Shown: positions 10,052 to 47,901 of the stretch, piece by piece
How positions within the stretch are numbered: position 1 is the first letter of the stretch
Layout of the letters: each line of letters opens with the position of its first letter
Assembly (NCBI RefSeq): GCF_016903815.1
Contig: NZ_CP069973.1
Reading direction: 5' to 3' (one strand)
Origin: Escherichia coli
GTDB lineage: Bacteria > Pseudomonadota > Gammaproteobacteria > Enterobacterales > Enterobacteriaceae
Length of the DNA: 64,000 nucleotides
The notes under the pieces: model-generated
Told to the model about the DNA's origin: nothing
Seen by the model: only the letters and a program-made list of their open reading frames with translations
Database searches by the model: none
Program-made: the position numbers and the translations under genes

Positions 10052-10079
10052 TCTGATAATTAGCTAAGTGCATGTTGTT

Positions 10080-10185
10080 CATGTCGGATGCGGCGTGAAC
10101 GCCTTATTAAACCCACAAAACGTTTATATTCAATATGTTACAATGACCGCGTAGGCCAGATAAGCGTAGCGCATCTGGCGATTTT
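10080..10185. repeat. REP-like palindromic elements (degenerate)
   Basis: tgtcggatgcggcgtgaacgcctta and gtaggccagataagcgtagcgcatctggcg resemble REP consensus. Confidence 0.5.
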
Positions 10186-10346
10186 GCGCTTGCCCTTATC
10201 CTTCACAGCGCCTTATTAATTCATCGCGATAATATTTACTGCCATTTCATTCACGTCTATTCTTAATTTGCTGCTTTAAAAACAAGTGATTGAGCAAAAT
10301 TGAGGCAAAAATGGACTGGTATCTGAAAGTACTAAAAAATTATGTC

Positions 10347-10354
10347 GGTTTCCG
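10347..10354. repeat. IS1 target-site duplication, left copy (ggtttccg)
   Basis: Identical 8-mer flanks both IS1 ends; a 9th base is ambiguous. Confidence 0.8.
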
Positions 10355-10409
10355 GGTAATGCTGCCAACTTACTGATTTAGTGTATGATGGTGATTTTAA
10401 GGTGCTTGC

Positions 10410-10685
10410 GTGGCTTCCATTTCCATCAGATGTCCTTCCTGCTCCGCTACTGAAGGCGTGGTGCGTAACGGCAAAAGCACTGCCGGACATCAGCGCTATC
10501 TCTGCTCTCATTGCCGTAAAACATGGCAACTACAGTTCACTTACACCGCCTCTCAGCCCGGTACGCACCAGAAAATCATTGATATGGCCATGAATGGCGT
10601 CGGATGTCGCGCCAGTGCACGCATTATGGGCGTTGGCCTCAACACGGTTTTACGTCACTTAAAAAACTCAGGCCGCAGTCGGTAA
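10410..10685 (+). CDS. insA: IS1 InsA (DNA-binding repressor)
   Basis: 91-aa [40 protein letters not shown]... zinc-finger protein of IS1. Confidence 0.93.
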
Positions 10686-11107
10686 CCTCGCGCATACAAC
10701 CGGGCAGTGATGTGATTGTCTGCGCTGAAATGGACGAACAGTGGGGCTACGTCGGTGCTAAATCACGTCAGCGCTGGCTGTTTTACGCGTATGACAGGAT
10801 ACGGAGGACGGTTGTGGCGCACGTCTTCGGTGAACGCACTCTGGCCACACTGGAGCGTCTTCTGAGCCTGCTGTCGGCCTTTGAGGTCGTGGTATGGATG
10901 ACGGATGGCTGGCCGCTGTATGAATCACGCCTGAAGGGAAAGCTGCACGTTATCAGCAAGCGTTACACTCAGCGCATTGAGCGACATAATCTGAATCTGA
11001 GACAACATCTGGCAAGGCTGGGACGGAAGTCACTGTCGTTCTCAAAATCGGTGGAGCTGCATGACAAGGTCATCGGGCATTATCTGAACATAAAACACTA
11101 TCAGTAA
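10604..11107 (+). CDS. insB: IS1 InsB frame (transposase catalytic part, expressed as InsAB' fusion)
   Basis: 167-aa ORF in -1 frame relative to insA; ...[32 protein letters not shown]... Confidence 0.9.
10652..10658 (+). other. IS1 programmed -1 ribosomal frameshift motif (A6C)
   Basis: ttAAAAAACtc near the 3' end of insA where the insB frame overlaps; known site producing InsAB' transposase. Confidence 0.8.
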
Positions 11108-11122
11108 GTTGGAGTCATTACC

Positions 11123-11130
11123 GGTTTCCG
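11123..11130. repeat. IS1 target-site duplication, right copy (ggtttccg)
   Basis: Matches 10347-10354. Confidence 0.8.
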
Positions 11131-11464
11131 GGGTCGTGCGCGGCGCAAAGAGTACTGGATGTTTATTCTGGTCAACATCATCTTTACGTTCGTGCTGGGG
11201 CTACTGGATAAAATGTTAGGCTGGCAACGTGCCGGTGGCGAAGGCATCCTGACGACAATCTACGGTATTCTGGTGTTTTTACCATGGTGGGCAGTTCAGT
11301 TCCGCCGCCTGCACGACACCGACCGCTCGGCGTGGTGGGCACTGCTATTCTTAATCCCGTTTATCGGCTGGCTTATTATCATCGTCTTTAACTGCCAGGC
11401 GGGTACGCCAGGCGAAAACCGCTTTGGACCTGATCCAAAACTGGAACCTTAAAACAAATCTACT

Positions 11465-11494
11465 CGCCGGATGTCTGACTCATCCGGCTTTTAT
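11465..11494 (+). terminator. intrinsic terminator after yhaH
   Basis: gccggatg-tctgactc-atccggc hairpin followed by ttttatc. Confidence 0.7.
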
Positions 11495-11693: not shown

Positions 11694-12050
11694 ATGCAGT
11701 GGTATTTATCCGTATTAAAAAATTATGTTGGTTTCTCTGGTCGCGCACGTCGTAAAGAGTACTGGATGTTTACTCTGATTAACGCCATCGTCGGCGCTAT
11801 TATCAATGTCATTCAATTGATTTTAGGTTTAGAGTTTCCGTTCCTTTCTCTCATTTACCTGGCAGCAACAATCATTCCGGTCATTGCTCTGTGCGTTCGT
11901 CGTCTGCATGATACTGACCGTTCAGGTGCGTGGGCGCTTCTCTATCTGGTACCGATCATTGGCTGGTTAGTTCTGTTTGTATTTGCCTGTTTAGAGGGCA
12001 ATTCTGGCAGCAATCGTTACGGAAACGATCCGAAGTTTGGTTCAAATTAA
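11694..12050 (+). CDS. yhaI: DUF805 inner membrane protein (paralog of yhaH)
   Basis: 118-aa ORF MQWYLSVLKNYVGFSGRARRKEYWMF...RRLHDTDRSGAWALL; shares N-terminal and RRLHDTDRS motifs with yhaH. Confidence 0.9.
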   Translation: MQWYLSVLKNYVGFSGRARRKEYWMFTLINAIVGAIINVIQLILGLEFPFLSLIYLAATIIPVIALCVRRLHDTDRSGAWALLYLVPIIGWLVLFVFACLEGNSGSNRYGNDPKFGSN

Positions 12051-37224: not shown

Positions 37225-37472
37225 AGTAAGTCCTTTCGTAAAACTTTCGTTTCATTTCGTTTTGCCTATTAACGCCTTTCTATTAAGCAAATGCAAGCCC
37301 ACCTTACCCATTGGCGCAAGCTACTCTCGTTTCAGTGGCTTTCATTATGTTTCTTTTGTGAATCAGATCAGAAAACTATTATCTTTCGTTTTATTTTTAT
37401 CTCACCATGGCGCAGTATCAACTGAAACAAAACGAAAGATTAATATCGCAGTAATCTGAACTGGAGAGGAAA
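37225..37472. promoter_or_regulatory. agaR/kbaZ divergent control region with repeated AgaR-type operator motifs
   Basis: Repeated tttcgtttcatttcgtttt, tctttcgttttattttt and aaacaaaacgaaagatt blocks resembling the remembered AgaR site pattern (TTTCRTTTYRTTTY). Confidence 0.65.
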
Positions 37473-38753
37473 GTGAAACATCTGACAGAAATGGTGAGAC
37501 AGCACAAAGAGGGCAAAACAAATGGGATTTATGCCGTTTGTTCCGCACATCCGCTGGTGCTGGAAGCTGCAATCCGCTACGCCAGTGCAAACCAAACGCC
37601 GTTACTGATTGAAGCAACCTCCAATCAGGTAGACCAGTTCGGCGGTTATACCGGAATGACGCCCGCCGATTTTCGCGGCTTTGTTTGTCAGCTCGCCGAC
37701 TCGTTGAATTTCCCACAGGATGCGTTGATTCTGGGTGGCGACCATCTGGGTCCAAACCGCTGGCAAAGCCTGCCTGCCGCTCAGGCAATGGCCAATGCCG
37801 ATGATTTGATTAAAAGCTACGTGGCGGCAGGATTCAAAAAAATTCACCTTGATTGCAGCATGTCCTGTCAGGACGATCCAATTCCCTTAACTGATGACAT
37901 CGTGGCTGAACGCGCCGCACGTCTGGCGAAAGTGGCGGAAGAAACCTGTCTTGAACACTTTGGCGAAGCCGATCTGGAGTATGTCATTGGTACCGAAGTA
38001 CCGGTACCTGGCGGCGCGCATGAAACCTTAAGCGAGCTGGCGGTCACCACGCCGGATGCCGCCCGCGCCACGCTGGAAGCCCATCGTCACGCCTTTGAAA
38101 AGCAAGGTTTGAATGCCATCTGGTCACGCATCATTGCCCTGGTGGTTCAACCCGGCGTCGAATTCGATCACACCAACGTTATTGATTATCAGCCCGCCAA
38201 AGCGAGCGCCTTAAGCCAGATGGTCGAAAACTACGAAACGCTGATTTTCGAAGCGCACTCTACCGATTATCAAACGCCGCAATCGCTGCGCCAGCTGGTG
38301 ATTGACCACTTTGCCATTCTGAAAGTTGGCCCGGCGCTGACCTTCGCCCTGCGTGAAGCTCTGTTCTCTCTGGCGGCGATTGAAGAAGAACTGGTACCAG
38401 CGAAAGCCTGTTCCGGTCTGCGTCAGGTGCTGGAAAACGTGATGCTCGACCGCCCGGAATACTGGCAAAGCCACTACCACGGTGACGGCAACGCACGTCG
38501 CCTGGCGCGTGGTTATAGCTACTCGGATCGCGTGCGCTATTACTGGCCGGACAGCCAGATTGATGACGCTTTCGCTCATCTGGTTCGTAATCTGGCGGAT
38601 TCACCAATTCCGCTACCGCTCATCAGCCAGTATCTGCCGCTGCAATACGTGAAAGTTCGCTCCGGCAAGCTGCAACCGACGCCACGGGAACTCATTATCA
38701 ACCATATTCAGGACATCCTGGCGCAGTACCACACAGCCTGTGAAGGCCAATAA
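37473..38753 (+). CDS. kbaZ: tagatose-1,6-bisphosphate aldolase accessory subunit
   Basis: 426-aa ORF from GTG; [62 protein letters not shown]... Confidence 0.9.
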
Positions 38754-38775
38754 GCAAAACAAAGAGGAACACGCT

Positions 38776-39249
38776 ATGCCAAATATTGTTTTAAGCCGGA
38801 TTGATGAACGCTTGATTCACGGTCAGGTCGGCGTTCAGTGGGTCGGATTTGCGGGGGCAAATCTGGTGCTGGTAGCCAACGATGAGGTTGCCGAAGATCC
38901 GGTACAACAAAACCTGATGGAAATGGTACTGGCAGAAGGGATCGCCGTACGTTTCTGGACGCTGCAAAAAGTCATCGACAACATTCATCGCGCCGCCGAT
39001 CGACAGAAAATCCTGCTGGTTTGTAAAACACCTGCCGATTTCCTGACGCTGGTGAAAGGTGGCGTTCCGGTGAATCGCATTAACGTTGGCAATATGCACT
39101 ACGCCAATGGCAAGCAACAAATCGCCAAAACGGTTTCTGTGGATGCGGGCGATATCGCAGCATTTAACGACCTGAAAGCCGCTGGGGTGGAATGCTTCGT
39201 TCAGGGCGTCCCGACAGAGCCTGCTGTGGACCTCTTTAAATTACTTTGA
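38776..39249 (+). CDS. agaV: PTS N-acetylgalactosamine-specific EIIB
   Basis: ORF 38740..39249; MPNIVLSRIDERLIHGQVGVQWVGFAGANLVLVAND... (157 aa). Confidence 0.9.
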   Translation: MPNIVLSRIDERLIHGQVGVQWVGFAGANLVLVANDEVAEDPVQQNLMEMVLAEGIAVRFWTLQKVIDNIHRAADRQKILLVCKTPADFLTLVKGGVPVNRINVGNMHYANGKQQIAKTVSVDAGDIAAFNDLKAAGVECFVQGVPTEPAVDLFKLL

Positions 39250-39259
39250 GGGATTCATC

Positions 39260-40039
39260 ATGGAAATCAGTCTGTTGCAGGCATTCGCGTTGGGCATTAT
39301 CGCCTTTATCGCTGGCCTGGATATGTTTAACGGCTTAACCCATATGCACCGCCCGGTGGTCCTCGGCCCATTGGTCGGGCTGGTACTTGGCGATCTGCAT
39401 ACCGGTATTTTAACCGGCGGTACGCTGGAACTGGTGTGGATGGGGCTGGCCCCGCTGGCAGGCGCACAACCGCCTAACGTGATTATCGGTACTATCGTCG
39501 GCACGGCGTTTGCCATTACTACTGGCGTGAAACCCGATGTCGCGGTCGGTGTCGCCGTACCTTTCGCTGTCGCAGTACAGATGGGGATTACCTTCCTGTT
39601 CTCGGTGATGTCTGGCGTGATGTCCCGCTGCGACCGGATGGCGGAGAACGCCGATACACGCGGCATTGAACGCGTGAACTATCTGGCATTGCTGGCACTC
39701 GGCACTTTCTATTTTCTCTGCGCTTTCCTGCCTATCTACTTCGGCGCAGAACATGCCAAAACCATCATTGATGTCCTGCCGCAACGATTAATCGACGGCC
39801 TCGGCGTCGCGGGCGGCATCATGCCAGCAATCGGTTTTGCCGTGCTGCTGAAAATCATGATGAAAAACGTCTACATCCCCTACTTCATCCTGGGCTTTGT
39901 TGCCGCAGCCTGGCTCAAGTTACCTGTGCTGGCTATTGCTGCCGCCGCGCTGGCGATGGCGCTGATCGACCTGCTGCGTAAATCTCCTGAACCGACTCAA
40001 CCTGCGGCACAGAAAGAGGAATTTGAAGATGGCATCTAA
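39260..40039 (+). CDS. agaW: PTS N-acetylgalactosamine-specific EIIC (full length)
   Basis: 259-aa ORF MEISLLQAFALGIIAFIAGLDMFNGLTHMHRPVVLGPLVGLVLGD...; mannose-family IIC. Confidence 0.88.
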   Translation: MEISLLQAFALGIIAFIAGLDMFNGLTHMHRPVVLGPLVGLVLGDLHTGILTGGTLELVWMGLAPLAGAQPPNVIIGTIVGTAFAITTGVKPDVAVGVAVPFAVAVQMGITFLFSVMSGVMSRCDRMAENADTRGIERVNYLALLALGTFYFLCAFLPIYFGAEHAKTIIDVLPQRLIDGLGVAGGIMPAIGFAVLLKIMMKNVYIPYFILGFVAAAWLKLPVLAIAAAALAMALIDLLRKSPEPTQPAAQKEEFEDGI

Positions 40040-40907
40040 TCAAACCACCCTGCCGAACGTCAGTGAAAACGAAGAAACACTGCTGACTGGCGTCAATGAA
40101 AACGTGTATGAAGATCAGAGCATTGGCGCGGAGCTGACGAAAAAAGATATCAACCGCGTCGCCTGGCGTTCCATGCTGTTACAAGCGTCTTTTAACTACG
40201 AACGTATGCAGGCTTCTGGCTGGTTGTACGGTCTGCTGCCTGCTCTGAAAAAGATCCACACTAATAAACGCGACCTGGCGCGCGCCATGAAAGGGCATAT
40301 GGGTTTCTTCAATACCCATCCGTTTCTGGTGACGTTTGTTATCGGCATTATCCTTGCGATGGAGCGTTCTAAGCAGGACGTTAACAGTATTCAGAGCACC
40401 AAAATTGCCGTCGGTGCGCCGCTCGGCGGGATTGGCGATGCGATGTTCTGGCTAACGCTACTGCCGATTTGTGGCGGGATAGGCGCAAGCCTCGCGCTAC
40501 AAGGCTCTATTCTTGGCGCTGTCGTCTTTATTGTGCTGTTCAACGTGGTGCACCTGGGGCTGCGTTTTGGTCTGGCGCATTATGCTTACCGCATGGGCGT
40601 GGCGGCGATTCCACTCATTAAAGCAAATACCAAAAAAGTCGGCCATGCGGCATCTATCGTTGGGATGACGGTAATCGGCGCGCTGGTGGCAACCTATGTT
40701 CGTTTAAGCACCACGCTGGAAATCACCGCGGGCGACGCAGTGGTTAAGTTACAGGCTGATGTTATCGACAAACTGATGCCAGCCTTCTTACCGCTGGTCT
40801 ACACCCTGACCATGTTCTGGCTGGTACGCCGCGGCTGGAGTCCGCTGCGCCTGATTGCGATTACCGTGGTTCTCGGCATCGTCGGTAAATTCTGCCATTT
40901 CCTTTAA
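40029..40907 (+). CDS. agaE: PTS N-acetylgalactosamine-specific EIID
   Basis: ORF 40023..40907; MASNQTTLPNVSENEETLLTG... mannose-family IID; overlaps agaW end. Confidence 0.88.
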   Translation: MASNQTTLPNVSENEETLLTGVNENVYEDQSIGAELTKKDINRVAWRSMLLQASFNYERMQASGWLYGLLPALKKIHTNKRDLARAMKGHMGFFNTHPFLVTFVIGIILAMERSKQDVNSIQSTKIAVGAPLGGIGDAMFWLTLLPICGGIGASLALQGSILGAVVFIVLFNVVHLGLRFGLAHYAYRMGVAAIPLIKANTKKVGHAASIVGMTVIGALVATYVRLSTTLEITAGDAVVKLQADVIDKLMPAFLPLVYTLTMFWLVRRGWSPLRLIAITVVLGIVGKFCHFL

Positions 40908-40924
40908 ATACAATGAGGTATTAG

Positions 40925-41359
40925 ATGTTAAGTATTATTTTGACAGGGCATGGCGGATTTGCCAGCGGCATGGAAAAAGCAATGAAGCAAATCCTCGGCG
41001 AGCAATCGCAGTTTATTGCCATCGATTTTCCCGAAACCTCAAGCACCGCGCTGCTTACATCGCAGCTTGAAGAGGCCATCGCCCAACTCGATTGTGAAGA
41101 CGGCATTGTTTTTCTGACGGATTTGCTGGGCGGCACGCCGTTTCGCGTAGCTTCAACGCTGGCGATGCAAAAACCGGGCTGTGAAGTGATCACCGGCACC
41201 AATTTGCAACTGCTACTGGAGATGGTGCTGGAGCGCGAAGGGTTAAGCGGTGAAGAGTTCCGTGTGCAGGCGCTGGAGTGTGGACATCGTGGGCTGACCA
41301 GTCTGGTGGACGAGTTAGGCCGCTGCCATGAAGAATGTCCGGTCGAGGAAGGAATATGA
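40925..41359 (+). CDS. agaF: PTS EIIA component (mannose family)
   Basis: 144-aa ORF MLSIILTGHGGFASGMEKAMKQILGEQSQFIAIDFPETSS... Confidence 0.88.
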   Translation: MLSIILTGHGGFASGMEKAMKQILGEQSQFIAIDFPETSSTALLTSQLEEAIAQLDCEDGIVFLTDLLGGTPFRVASTLAMQKPGCEVITGTNLQLLLEMVLEREGLSGEEFRVQALECGHRGLTSLVDELGRCHEECPVEEGI

Positions 41360-42489
41360 CACACGTTCTGCGCGCCAGAAGGCTGCTGACTGAAGAGGGA
41401 TGGCTCGATGACCATCAGTTGCGTATTGCTGACGGTGTAATCGCAGCAATCGAACCGATTCCAGTGGGCGTGACTGAACGCGATGCGGAACTGCTCTGCC
41501 CCGCTTACATCGACACCCATGTACATGGTGGTGCGGGCGTTGATGTAATGGATGACGCGCCGGATGTGCTCGACAAGCTGGCAATGCACAAAGCACGCGA
41601 AGGTGTCGGCAGTTGGTTACCGACCACCGTAACCGCGCCGCTTAATACCATTCATGCGGCGCTGAAACGTATTGCTCAACGTTGCCAACGCGGCGGACCT
41701 GGTGCGCAAGTGCTGGGGAGTTATCTCGAAGGACCGTACTTCACGCCGCAGAATAAAGGCGCGCATCCGCCGGAGCTGTTTCGCGAGCTGGAAATTGCCG
41801 AGCAGGATCAATTGATTGCCGTTTCTCAGCACACCTTGCGCGTGGTAGCGCTGGCACCGGAAAAAGAAGGGGCATTGCAGGCCATCCGCCATCTTAAACA
41901 GCAAAACGTACGGGTGATGCTGGGGCATAGCGCGGCGACCTGGCAACAAACCCGTGCCGCGTTTGACGCTGGTGCCGACGGCCTGGTGCATTGCTATAAC
42001 GGGATGACAGGTTTACATCACCGCGAACCGGGAATGGTTGGCGCGGGATTAACGGACAAGCGCGCCTGGCTGGAACTGATAGCCGATGGTCATCATGTGC
42101 ATCCGGCGGCGATGTCGCTGTGTTGTTGCTGTGCGAAAGAGAGAATCGTGCTGATCACCGACGCGATGCAGGCAGCCGGGATGCCGGATGGTCGCTATAC
42201 GTTATGTGGCGAAGAAGTGCAGATGCACGGTGGCGTTGTCCGTACCGCGTCCGGTGGACTGGCGGGCAGTACGCTGTCTGTTGATGCGGCAGTGCGCAAT
42301 ATGGTCGAGTTGACGGACGTAACGCCTGCGGAAGCCATCCATATGGCGTCGCTGCATCCGGCGCGTATGCTGGGTGTTGATGATGTTCTGGGATCGCTTA
42401 AACCGGGCAAACGCGCCAGCGTCGTTGCGCTGGATAGCGGGCTGCATGTGCAACAAATCTGGATTCAGGGTCAATTAGCTTCGTTTTGA
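41356..42489 (+). CDS. agaA: N-acetylgalactosamine-6-phosphate deacetylase (full length)
   Basis: ORF 41335..42489; MTHVLRARRLLTEEGWLDDHQLRIADGVIAAIEP... (377 aa), NagA-like; start overlaps agaF stop (ATGA). Confidence 0.88.
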   Translation: MTHVLRARRLLTEEGWLDDHQLRIADGVIAAIEPIPVGVTERDAELLCPAYIDTHVHGGAGVDVMDDAPDVLDKLAMHKAREGVGSWLPTTVTAPLNTIHAALKRIAQRCQRGGPGAQVLGSYLEGPYFTPQNKGAHPPELFRELEIAEQDQLIAVSQHTLRVVALAPEKEGALQAIRHLKQQNVRVMLGHSAATWQQTRAAFDAGADGLVHCYNGMTGLHHREPGMVGAGLTDKRAWLELIADGHHVHPAAMSLCCCCAKERIVLITDAMQAAGMPDGRYTLCGEEVQMHGGVVRTASGGLAGSTLSVDAAVRNMVELTDVTPAEAIHMASLHPARMLGVDDVLGSLKPGKRASVVALDSGLHVQQIWIQGQLASF

Positions 42490-42562
42490 TGGTTTGCTCC
42501 TTTATTGGGCCTTCACTTCCCCCGTAAGGCCTTTCTTTTTCTTTCTTTTTGATCTGTGCAGC

Positions 42563-42620
42563 GGTGTCGGATGCGACGCTGACGCGTCTTATGCGACCTA
42601 CGGTACGCCGCATCCGGCAA
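42563..42620. repeat. REP palindromic element
   Basis: gtcggatgcgacgctgacgcgtcttatgcgacctacggtacgccgcatccggca. Confidence 0.75.
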
Positions 42621-42649
42621 TCGGTGCACATAGCAACGTCATCATGCAA

Positions 42650-42839
42650 TTCTTTAATCTTCCCTTGTCTTTTCTTTCAACGATCACAAATTTCGTTTTA
42701 TTTCTTTTTTCTCCATTGAACTTTCAGTTTCTTTTCTATAGATTTTAATCAACGAAAGACATCACCAAATGAAATGAAACGAAAGGTAAGCGAAAGCGAC
42801 AACGCCCGACGTCAAGTTCATCAGACTAAGGATTGAGTT
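42650..42839. promoter_or_regulatory. agaS promoter region with AgaR-type operator repeats
   Basis: aaatttcgttttatttctttt and inverted tttcgtttcatttcatttggtg blocks upstream of agaS. Confidence 0.65.
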
Positions 42840-43994
42840 ATGCCAGAAAATTACACCCCTGCTGCTGCCGCAACCGGTACATGGACTGAAGAAGAGATCC
42901 GCCATCAGCCTCGCGCATGGATCCGTTCACTCACCAACATCGACGCGCTACGTTCCGCGCTCAATAACTTCCTTGAACCGTTACTGCGCAAAGAGAATCT
43001 GCGGGTAATCCTGACCGGAGCCGGAACCTCGGCATTTATCGGTGACATCATCGCGCCGTGGCTCGCCAGCCATACCGATAAAAACTTCAGCGCCGTACCG
43101 ACCACCGATCTGGTCACCAATCCGATGGACTACCTGAATCCAGCTCATCCACTGCTGTTGATCTCCTTCGGTCGATCCGGCAACAGCCCGGAAAGCGTCG
43201 CCGCCGTGGAACTGGCAAATCAATTTGTACCCGAGTGCTATCACCTGCCGATCACCTGCAACGAAGCGGGCGCTCTTTACCAAAACGCGATCAACAGCGA
43301 CAACGCGTTTGCCCTGCTGATGCCCGCAGAAACGCACGATCGCGGCTTTGCGATGACCAGCAGCATTACCACCATGATGGCCAGCTGCCTCGCGGTTTTC
43401 GCACCTGAGACGATCAACAGCCAGAGCTTCCGCGACGTGGCGGATCGTTGCCAGGCGATCCTGACCTCACTGGGCGATTTCAGCGAAGGTGTGTTTGGTT
43501 ACGCACCGTGGAAACGGATCGTTTATCTCGGCAGCGGTGGCTTACAGGGCGCAGCACGCGAGTCGGCGCTGAAAGTACTGGAACTGACGGCGGGTAAACT
43601 GGCGGCCTTTTATGATTCCCCGACCGGATTCCGTCATGGCCCGAAATCGCTGGTCGATAACGAAACGCTGGTGGTGGTATTTGTCTCCAGCCACCCTTAC
43701 ACCCGCCAGTATGATCTTGATCTGCTGGCTGAACTTCGTCGTGACAACCAGGCAATGCGCGTAATCGCTATCGCCGCGGAAAGCAACGACGTTATTACCG
43801 CCGGTCCACATATCATCCTGCCGCCGTCACGTCACTTTATCGACGTTGAGCAGGCATTTTGCTTCCTGATGTACGCCCAGACGTTTGCACTGATGCAGTC
43901 GCTGCACATGGGCAATACGCCGGATACCCCATCAGCCAGTGGCACCGTTAACCGCGTGGTGCAAGGCGTAATCATTCATCCGTGGCAGGCATAA
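42840..43994 (+). CDS. agaS: galactosamine-6-phosphate deaminase/isomerase (SIS domains)
   Basis: 384-aa ORF MPENYTPAAAATGTWTEEEIRHQPRAWIRSLTNIDALRSALNNFLEP... Confidence 0.9.
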   Translation: MPENYTPAAAATGTWTEEEIRHQPRAWIRSLTNIDALRSALNNFLEPLLRKENLRVILTGAGTSAFIGDIIAPWLASHTDKNFSAVPTTDLVTNPMDYLNPAHPLLLISFGRSGNSPESVAAVELANQFVPECYHLPITCNEAGALYQNAINSDNAFALLMPAETHDRGFAMTSSITTMMASCLAVFAPETINSQSFRDVADRCQAILTSLGDFSEGVFGYAPWKRIVYLGSGGLQGAARESALKVLELTAGKLAAFYDSPTGFRHGPKSLVDNETLVVVFVSSHPYTRQYDLDLLAELRRDNQAMRVIAIAAESNDVITAGPHIILPPSRHFIDVEQAFCFLMYAQTFALMQSLHMGNTPDTPSASGTVNRVVQGVIIHPWQA

Positions 43995-44867
<873 letters not shown>

Positions 44868-45033
44868 TCATTAGTTTTTTATGATTTATCCCAATGTACT
44901 TCCCGATTAATATCGGGGAGTGCCTTAATGGTAAAGGAGATAACTAAACCTTAATAAATACATCAGTACAATACCGCAACAATAATATATTTAAAAAGAT
45001 TATATTATTCAACTTTATGGTGAGGATTACACA

Positions 45034-45510
45034 ATGAGCAGTCCAAATATTCTCTTAACCCGTATTGATAACCGTCTGGTTCACGGTCAGGTTGGCGTGA
45101 CCTGGACATCCACCATCGGTGCGAATCTGCTGGTAGTCGTGGATGATGTTGTCGCTAACGATGATATTCAACAGAAATTAATGGGTATTACCGCAGAAAC
45201 CTACGGCTTTGGCATTCGTTTCTTTACTATCGAAAAAACCATTAACGTCATCGGCAAAGCTGCACCGCATCAGAAGATCTTCCTGATTTGCCGCACGCCA
45301 CAAACGGTACGTAAATTGGTAGAAGGTGGCATTGACCTGAAAGATGTCAACGTCGGCAATATGCATTTCTCGGAAGGGAAAAAGCAAATCAGCAGTAAAG
45401 TTTATGTCGATGACCAGGATCTCACGGACTTACGTTTTATTAAACAACGTGGCGTGAATGTTTTCATTCAGGACGTCCCTGGCGATCAAAAAGAACAAAT
45501 CCCTGACTAA
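45034..45510 (+). CDS. agaB: PTS galactosamine-specific EIIB
   Basis: 158-aa ORF MSSPNILLTRIDNRLVHGQVGVTWTSTIGANLLVVVDD... Confidence 0.9.
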   Translation: MSSPNILLTRIDNRLVHGQVGVTWTSTIGANLLVVVDDVVANDDIQQKLMGITAETYGFGIRFFTIEKTINVIGKAAPHQKIFLICRTPQTVRKLVEGGIDLKDVNVGNMHFSEGKKQISSKVYVDDQDLTDLRFIKQRGVNVFIQDVPGDQKEQIPD

Positions 45511-45548
45511 ATCTAAAATCGCCTTAATATTGGTTTGAGGTAATAAAA

Positions 45549-46352
45549 ATGCATGAAATAACCCTACTTCAGGGATTATCCCTGGCGGCGTTAGTTTTCG
45601 TTCTGGGGATTGATTTTTGGCTGGAAGCCTTATTTTTATTCCGCCCGATAATCGTTTGTACCCTAACTGGCGCTATTCTCGGTGATATTCAGACTGGCTT
45701 AATTACCGGTGGTCTGACAGAGTTGGCTTTCGCCGGATTAACCCCTGCAGGTGGTGTTCAGCCGCCCAACCCGATTATGGCGGGTCTGATGACCACTGTC
45801 ATTGCATGGTCTACGGGCGTTGATGCCAAAACGGCAATTGGTCTTGGCCTGCCGTTTAGTTTGTTAATGCAGTACGTCATTCTGTTCTTCTATTCCGCTT
45901 TCTCATTATTTATGACCAAAGCCGATAAATGCGCAAAAGAGGCGGATACGGCAGCGTTTTCCCGACTTAACTGGACAACGATGCTCATCGTCGCTTCAGC
46001 GTATGCGGTGATTGCTTTCCTCTGTACTTACCTGGCACAGGGGGCGATGCAGGCGCTGGTGAAAGCGATGCCCGCCTGGCTGACCCACGGCTTTGAAGTG
46101 GCTGGCGGTATTCTGCCTGCCGTTGGTTTTGGCTTGCTGCTGCGCGTGATGTTCAAAGCGCAATATATCCCTTACCTGATCGCCGGTTTCCTGTTTGTTT
46201 GCTACATCCAGGTCAGCAACCTGTTGCCGGTTGCCGTACTGGGCGCAGGCTTTGCGGTGTATGAGTTTTTCAATGCGAAATCCCGGCAGCAAGCGCAACC
46301 GCAGCCCGTTGCCAGTAAAAATGAAGAAGAGGACTACAGCAATGGGATCTGA
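45549..46352 (+). CDS. agaC: PTS galactosamine-specific EIIC
   Basis: 267-aa ORF MHEITLLQGLSLAALVFVLGIDFWLEALFLFRPIIVCTLTGAILGD... Confidence 0.9.
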   Translation: MHEITLLQGLSLAALVFVLGIDFWLEALFLFRPIIVCTLTGAILGDIQTGLITGGLTELAFAGLTPAGGVQPPNPIMAGLMTTVIAWSTGVDAKTAIGLGLPFSLLMQYVILFFYSAFSLFMTKADKCAKEADTAAFSRLNWTTMLIVASAYAVIAFLCTYLAQGAMQALVKAMPAWLTHGFEVAGGILPAVGFGLLLRVMFKAQYIPYLIAGFLFVCYIQVSNLLPVAVLGAGFAVYEFFNAKSRQQAQPQPVASKNEEEDYSNGI

Positions 46353-47133
46353 AATCAGTAAAAAAGATATCACCCGTCTGGGCTTTCGTTCGTCACTGCT
46401 GCAAGCGAGCTTTAATTACGAAAGGATGCAGGCGGGCGGTTTTACCTGGGCGATGTTGCCGATCCTGAAAAAGATTTATAAGGACGACAAACCGGGCCTA
46501 AGCGCGGCGATGAAAGATAACCTCGAATTTATTAATACCCACCCGAATCTGGTCGGATTCCTGATGGGGTTATTAATTTCGATGGAAGAAAAAGGAGAAA
46601 ACCGCGACACCATTAAAGGCCTCAAAGTAGCACTGTTTGGCCCAATCGCCGGGATTGGCGATGCGATTTTCTGGTTTACCTTATTGCCGATTATGGCGGG
46701 AATTTGCTCATCATTTGCCAGCCAGGGAAACTTGCTGGGGCCGATTCTATTTTTCGCCGTTTACCTGCTTATCTTTTTCCTGCGCGTCGGCTGGACCCAC
46801 GTCGGTTATTCAGTCGGCGTGAAGGCGATCGATAAAGTGCGAGAGAACTCGCAGATGATTGCTCGCTCGGCAACCATCCTCGGGATCACGGTAATCGGCG
46901 GGCTGATCGCTTCGTATGTGCATATTAACGTGGTGACATCGTTTGCCATCGACAGTACCCACAGCGTCGCGCTGCAACAGGATTTCTTCGATAAAGTCTT
47001 CCCGAACATTTTACCGATGGCCTACACCCTGCTGATGTATTACTTTCTGCGGGTGAAAAAAGCGCATCCGGTGCTGTTAATCGGCGTGACTTTTGTGCTC
47101 TCTATTGTTTGTTCCGCATTCGGCATTTTGTAA
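46342..47133 (+). CDS. agaD: PTS galactosamine-specific EIID
   Basis: ORF 46195..47133; MGSEISKKDITRLGFRSSLLQASFNYERMQAGGFTWAMLPILKK... (263 aa); overlaps agaC end. Confidence 0.9.
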   Translation: MGSEISKKDITRLGFRSSLLQASFNYERMQAGGFTWAMLPILKKIYKDDKPGLSAAMKDNLEFINTHPNLVGFLMGLLISMEEKGENRDTIKGLKVALFGPIAGIGDAIFWFTLLPIMAGICSSFASQGNLLGPILFFAVYLLIFFLRVGWTHVGYSVGVKAIDKVRENSQMIARSATILGITVIGGLIASYVHINVVTSFAIDSTHSVALQQDFFDKVFPNILPMAYTLLMYYFLRVKKAHPVLLIGVTFVLSIVCSAFGIL

Positions 47134-47901
47134 ATGGAACGAGGCACTGCGTCTGGTGGTGCCTCTTTACTTAAGGAATTTCATCCTGTGCAAACCCTTC
47201 AGCAAGTTGAAAACTATATGGCGTTAAGTGAACGTGCCAGCGAATATTTATTGGCCGTGATCCGTAGCAAACCGGATGCCGTGATTTGCCTGGCGACCGG
47301 AGCCACGCCATTACTGACGTATCATTATCTGGTAGAAAAAATCCACCAGCAGCAGGTTGATGTCAGCCAGCTCACCTTCGTGAAGCTCGACGAATGGGTG
47401 GATCTGCCATTAACTATGCCTGGTACCTGCGAAACTTTCCTGCAACAGCATATCGTGCAGCCGCTGGGGCTGCGTGAAGACCAGCTCATCAGCTTTCGCT
47501 CCGAAGAGATAAATGAGACAGAGTGCGAACGGGTAACGCACCTGATTGCGCGCAAAGGCGGTCTGGATTTATGCGTTCTCGGGTTGGGGAAAAACGGTCA
47601 TCTTGGGCTGAACGAACCGGGAGAAAGCCTGCAACCGGCCTGCCATATCAGTCAACTTGATGCCAGAACACAGCAACATGAGATGTTAAAAACCGCGGGC
47701 CGTCCCGTGACTCGTGGGATCACCTTAGGCCTGAAGGATATTCTCAATGCCCGCGAAGTTTTGTTACTGGTGACTGGCGAAGGAAAGCAGGATGCGACAG
47801 AACGTTTTCTCACGGCTAAAGTCTCTACCGCTATCCCGGCTTCATTTTTATGGCTGCATAACTATTTCACATGCATGATTGATGAGATGTGTCGTCGTTA
47901 A
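47134..47901 (+). CDS. agaI: putative galactosamine-6-phosphate deaminase/isomerase (NagB-like)
   Basis: 255-aa ORF MERGTASGGASLLKEFHPVQTLQQVENYMALSERASEYLLAVIRSKPDAVICLATGATP... Confidence 0.88.
   Translation: MERGTASGGASLLKEFHPVQTLQQVENYMALSERASEYLLAVIRSKPDAVICLATGATPLLTYHYLVEKIHQQQVDVSQLTFVKLDEWVDLPLTMPGTCETFLQQHIVQPLGLREDQLISFRSEEINETECERVTHLIARKGGLDLCVLGLGKNGHLGLNEPGESLQPACHISQLDARTQQHEMLKTAGRPVTRGITLGLKDILNAREVLLLVTGEGKQDATERFLTAKVSTAIPASFLWLHNYFTCMIDEMCRR

Follow-up and report, generated by a model that had tools for sequence, protein, structure and literature searches.

IS1A and IS1E are the 'consensus' K-12 IS1 copies on which most IS1 experiments have been performed. Elements of this family prefer AT-rich DNA, and their InsA protein is a repressor that binds the IS1 terminal repeats. 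Escherichia coli K-12 additionally carries IS1F, which differs from the IS1A/E consensus by 73 mismatches and barely transposes in experiments (PMC12428005). The target duplications of IS1 measure 8 or 9 bp (PMC12428005), the same two lengths being attributed to Iida et al. 1981 as cited in PMC10999674. The gene considered here, yhaH, is listed among the uncharacterised genes of E. coli (PMC11551758), and such a listing was all that was found in the literature on the function of yhaH or of DUF805.

In the 64-kb stretch of DNA that was analysed (hereafter the window), yhaH is split by a complete IS1 (Table 1). The locus is explained, with a high degree of confidence, by a simple transposition in which an intact IS1F-type IS1 recently entered codon 15 of yhaH and inactivated this non-essential DUF805 inner-membrane gene in a sub-lineage of ST405. 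Following established IS1 biology, the InsAB' transposase would have been made through a -1 frameshift at the A6C motif and would have bound the 23-nt terminal repeats and joined them to target DNA cut with an 8-bp stagger, after which repair of the stagger would have left the duplication of GGTTTCCG. No evidence contradicting the insertion itself was encountered.

Table 1. Features of the interrupted yhaH locus, in window coordinates.
Feature	Position	Strand	Description and basis
yhaH 5' remnant	10311..10354	+	Codons 1-14 and two bases of codon 15; identical to the K-12 5' end
Target duplication, left copy	10347..10354		8 bp, GGTTTCCG; repeat search
IS1, complete, IS1F type	10355..11122	+	Exactly 768 bp (sequence reading and ORF listing); 763/768 identical to K-12 IS1F
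IRL	10355..10377	+	GGTAATGCTGCCAACTTACTGAT; overlaps the promoter-like site upstream of insA
Promoter-like site	10362-10389	+	CTGCCA-16-TATGAT; promoter scan; partly within IRL
insA	10410..10685	+	GTG start, 91 aa; ORF list; Pfam Zn_ribbon_InsA, HTH_Tnp_IS1
insAB' transposase frame	10410..11107	+	232 aa after the -1 shift, 0 internal stops
Programmed -1 frameshift motif	10661..10667	+	AAAAAAC (A6C); sequence; role as in PMC12428005
IRR	11100..11122	-	GGTAATGACTCCAACTTACTGAT, read on the minus strand; inverted-repeat search
Target duplication, right copy	11123..11130		8 bp, GGTTTCCG; repeat search
yhaH 3' remnant	11131..11452	+	Third base of codon 15 to the stop codon
In-frame ATG ORF	11159..11452	+	97 aa, from Met25 of YhaH; ORF list
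Terminator-like hairpin and T-run	11466..11488	+	After yhaH; separates yhaH from yhaI
yhaI	11694..12050	+	Intact DUF805 paralogue, 118 aa; ORF list, Pfam

The original prediction of a complete 768-bp IS1 with intact insA and insB frames and an A6C motif was confirmed by the ends of the element, by its ORFs, and by the 232-aa fusion frame, and comparison with other IS1 copies found the same terminal repeats as in K-12 IS1F. The two repeat arms span 23 nt with 3 mismatches (87% complementary; inverted-repeat search), and their sequence has only two matches in the 64-kb window, where zero are expected in shuffled sequence. The insB frame is open as far as the TAA at 11105-11107. The predicted InsAB' protein scores 69.8 bits against PF03811, 95.1 bits against PF12759, and 248.3 bits against PF03400 (DDE_Tnp_IS1), together with 245 bits against the NCBIfam model of the IS1 transposase (NF033558, cut-off 100), all of these Pfam and NCBIfam scores lying far above the curated cut-offs. 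Upstream of insA, the promoter-like site occupies the known place of the IS1 insA promoter. The length, the repeats of about 23 bp with a GGT(A/G)ATG start, the insA/insB' arrangement with A6C, the protein domains, and a duplication of the 8/9-bp class are those of the IS1 family, and RefSeq labels the element 'IS1 family transposase, programmed frameshift' in matching genomes.

The isoform was named by comparison with the K-12 copies of IS1F and IS1A, both taken from NC_000913.3. In alignment, the window element is identical to IS1F of K-12 at 763 of 768 positions and to IS1A at 700 of 768, and, judged by its sequence, it is an intact IS1F-type element. IS1A and IS1E share with it the family, the length, the gene layout, the frameshift motif, and the right-end sequence, whereas IS1A has 68 mismatches in 768 bp (91% identity), a left end that reads GGTGATG, and an InsA protein differing at five residues (V4I, S7R, D15E, T68S, and I80V). 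The GGTAATG start, which had been set against a K-12 form reading GGTGATG, is that of IS1F, GGTGATG being indeed the start of IS1A, and the InsA substitutions noted from the sequence are likewise those of IS1F. The suggestion of a divergent isoform holds to the extent that the copy is not IS1A; it is not unusual, however, since K-12 itself carries IS1F and, among the E. coli records searched, 3927 have a best IS1 match that reaches at least 99% identity with the window copy.

IS1F of K-12 MG1655 lies at 4518472-4519239, adjoining fecI (locus L004, 3473-4240), and has in common with the window copy its 768-bp length, terminal repeats, GGTAATG left end, and insA/A6C/insB layout. Five differences separate the two, of which two are disabling in K-12: a TAG stop in insB (annotated as the pseudogene insB7), where the window copy has TGG, and the replacement by proline of the His34 that InsA has in the window (H34P). 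The K-12 InsA protein further carries T52K relative to the window copy, and the K-12 element has no flanking duplication, whereas the window copy is bordered by a fresh one of 8 bp. The stop codon fits the low transposition reported for that copy (PMC12428005), and together with the change at His34 it probably explains this near-immobility. The IS1F-type isoform, crippled in K-12, is intact in wild strains and probably mobile there, as is indirectly suggested by its intact frames, by its presence or absence among near-identical ST405 genomes, and by fresh 8-bp duplications around other copies.

At the window site, the start-to-start spacing of the two copies of GGTTTCCG is 776, which equals 768 + 8, so the duplication is 8 bp. 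The repeat finder reported a longer identity of 11 nt at the same spacing, CGGTTTCCGGG, because the last C and the opening GG of the IS coincide by chance with the target bases. The octamer occurs once at this site in K-12 and in the ST405 strain 50579417, and the flanking duplication expected from the sequence is exact, with both copies located. The element interrupts codon 15 (10353-10355) after its second base, and this codon remains CGG only thanks to the G with which the IS begins; the original prediction was right that yhaH is split but placed the break after codon 15 rather than within it.

When the IS and one duplicate are removed, 10311-10354 joins to 11131-11452 in a 366-nt ORF of 121 codons. 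Direct comparison of the IS-excised window with K-12 gave 6 synonymous differences and 121/121 identical residues in the rebuilt yhaH (K-12 b3103), and neither remnant contains a disabling change other than the insertion. The rebuilt protein scores 120.9 bits against Pfam DUF805 (PF05656, cut-off 25.7) over profile positions 1-111, and YhaH is 53% identical to the adjacent YhaI (E = 2e-44). These results bear out the expectation that excision would restore an uninterrupted frame paralogous to yhaI. K-12 and strain 7/2 have the same gene order as the window, yqjG-yhaH-yhaI-yhaJ.

The distribution of the insertion was examined with a 1361-bp stretch spanning both junctions, at a coverage threshold of at least 80%. 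Of 5426 complete E. coli genomes, 94 carried the identical insertion, and the junction stretch was 100% identical in all 30 matches listed. Among the carriers, WCHEC96200 and KY1497 have both been published as ST405, phylogroup D, and strain 7/2 shows just 3 differences from the window across 64 kb. In the other genomes searched, an uninterrupted yhaH is the rule. Over 20,407 bp, three empty-site genomes show only 1-2 differences from the IS-excised window; one of them, strain 50579417, published as ST405, has an uninterrupted yhaH and a single different base in 20.4 kb. Because the site is empty in near-identical ST405 genomes, the insertion is recent and variable within the clone. It is already annotated in RefSeq and is ordinary, being a known isoform of a known IS with a known mode of insertion, and it leaves the current understanding of IS1 or DUF805 proteins unchanged. 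Its one practical use is as a PCR or genomic typing marker for a sub-lineage of multidrug-resistant ST405.

The three positions at which the window and strain 7/2 differ are 17270, 53409, and 57805; the first is in tdcG, a gene for which 7/2 and the empty-site ST405 genomes also have different protein accessions.

Two further IS1-disrupted alleles, in strains MRE162 and ZH142, were found by following up two low-coverage rows of the yhaH search. In MRE162, the insertion (L016, 1737-2504) lies in the same AT-rich 5' part of the gene, 11 bp further upstream than the window insertion, at the equivalent of window positions of about 10335-10343. It has the opposite orientation to the window copy, is flanked by the 9-bp duplication AAAAAATTA, and belongs to a different isoform (identical to IS1A at 743 of 768 positions and to the window copy at 714 of 768) whose left end also reads GGTAATG, as in the window copy. 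It is an event independent of the window insertion. The pig strain ZH142 (L017, 2574-3341) has the MRE162 left junction, with the rest of yhaH deleted up to the window equivalent of 11538, probably through an IS1-mediated adjacent deletion. The two independent insertions mark the AT-rich 5' end of yhaH as a repeated IS1 target, and yhaH thereby joins the dispensable genes that are repeatedly hit by IS1.

Alternatively, the insertion would be adaptive or regulatory, IS1 driving or altering the expression of the downstream yhaI or of a truncated YhaH' of 97 or 111 aa under selection in the ST405 sub-lineage. In favour of this reading, the insertion has become fixed in a successful clone (94 complete genomes), an in-frame ORF with most of DUF805 survives, insB ends in the reading frame of the 3' part of yhaH, IS1 makes hybrid promoters (Prentki et al. 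1986, as cited in PMC12428005), and yhaH was struck independently by another IS1 in MRE162. The details of the locus, however, argue against it. The 97-aa ORF, which was correctly anticipated to begin at an in-frame ATG, matches positions 15-111 only of the DUF805 profile and has lost the conserved N-terminal segment GRARRKEYW. RefSeq (PGAP) instead calls a 111-aa ORF ('DUF805 domain-containing protein') from an ATT at 11117, inside IRR; as read from the sequence, the sole GGAG precedes this codon by only 2 nt, less than the spacing that a normal ribosome-binding site requires, and the start is probably an annotation convenience. A promoter scan found no sigma-70-like site on the plus strand at the right junction, facing the 3' fragment, and the only site of hybrid type faces the opposite way. 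The earlier proposal that this fragment might be expressed as a truncated protein is accordingly not supported, given both the missing promoter-like site and the missing N-terminal motif. The shared frame of the 3' part of yhaH and the TAA that ends insB and insAB' is read as a coincidence. The hairpin and T-run at 11466-11488 separate yhaH from yhaI, for which reason polarity on yhaI is unlikely. The frequency of the insertion is ascribed to clonal hitch-hiking, and its recurrence to the AT-rich target. An adaptive role is therefore considered very improbable; by the preferred account of a simple transposition, yhaH would be non-functional and the insertion selectively neutral or nearly so, although the survival of a 97-aa ORF with most of DUF805, annotated as a gene in RefSeq, counts against a loss of function.

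The 5' remnant runs six codons into the IS before a TGA and would encode a 21-residue peptide, MDWYLKVLKNYVGFR-VMLPTY-stop. At the same junction, a hybrid promoter-like site with 10/12 consensus positions occupies 10339-10368 on the minus strand, with its -35 (TTGGCA) in the IS1 left repeat and its -10 (CATAAT) in codons 10-11 of yhaH. Its direction is outward from the IS, reading the yhaH leader in antisense and heading for the 3' end of yqjG; that strand carries no gene downstream.

Since IS copies often cause misassembly, and 12 IS1 places exist in strain 7/2, the interruption might also be an assembly artefact, or a recombinant IS1 with flanks of different origin (arising by IS1-IS1 recombination or from a composite transposon). 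Several other IS1F-type copies indeed have no matching flanks (L011, L012, L014, and L015). Against such an origin stand the exact 8-bp duplication and the collinearity of both flanks with K-12 and with the empty-site ST405 genomes, and 94 complete genomes, assembled independently of one another, share the same junctions. An artefactual or recombinant origin is already refuted by these junctions, by the comparison with K-12, and by the empty-site genomes. An uninterrupted yhaH in the same background had been named beforehand as a finding that would count against the insertion; such an empty site does exist in ST405 strain 50579417, but it shows that the insertion varies within the clone, not that it is artefactual, the identical junctions being found in 94 independent assemblies.

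The length of the duplication was followed further in six other sampled IS1F-type copies, of which two have matching flanks, both with 8-bp duplications: AGATTGCT around the copy in an Rhs gene of strain 7/2 (L010) and GTTTATCG around the copy in dgcZ of strain 7_12_30A (L013). The remaining four, those without matching flanks, are uninformative on duplication length. Duplications of 8 bp thus accompany 3 of 3 IS1F-type copies, the window copy included, which is suggestive, though the sample is small. A less conventional interpretation of the locus would be either that inactivation of yhaH has been repeatedly selected, given at least two independent IS1 hits within 11 bp in unrelated strains, one of them fixed in a successful branch of the high-risk clone ST405, or that IS1F-type elements systematically cut an 8-bp rather than a 9-bp stagger. 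We consider this pair of possibilities improbable; if the latter were true, the IS1F-type element could be used as a naturally occurring variant in studies of how stagger length is fixed by the IS1 transposase.

The fourth base of the left repeat, an A, was also considered as the cause of an 8-bp stagger; this idea was rejected because the MRE162 isoform, whose left repeat is the same, made a 9-bp duplication.

Elsewhere in the window, several features deserve brief mention. In an Rfam scan covering the whole window, the sole match was rnpB (28775-29151, minus strand), and neither the IS nor its surroundings gave a hit. The intergenic region between yqjG and yhaH contains REP-like palindromic repeats at 10060-10200, and the y-ome paper describes yhaH as 'surrounded by repeat sites'. 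Strains differ in this region, a 925-bp query being covered in fewer genomes than a 407-bp query. A prlF-yhaV toxin-antitoxin pair (about 35561-36360) and a complete aga/kba cluster for N-acetylgalactosamine/galactosamine (about 37470-47900; agaVWEF, agaA (annotated as nagA), agaS, kbaY, and agaBCDI) are annotated in the matching strain; K-12 presumably carries a deletion in this cluster.
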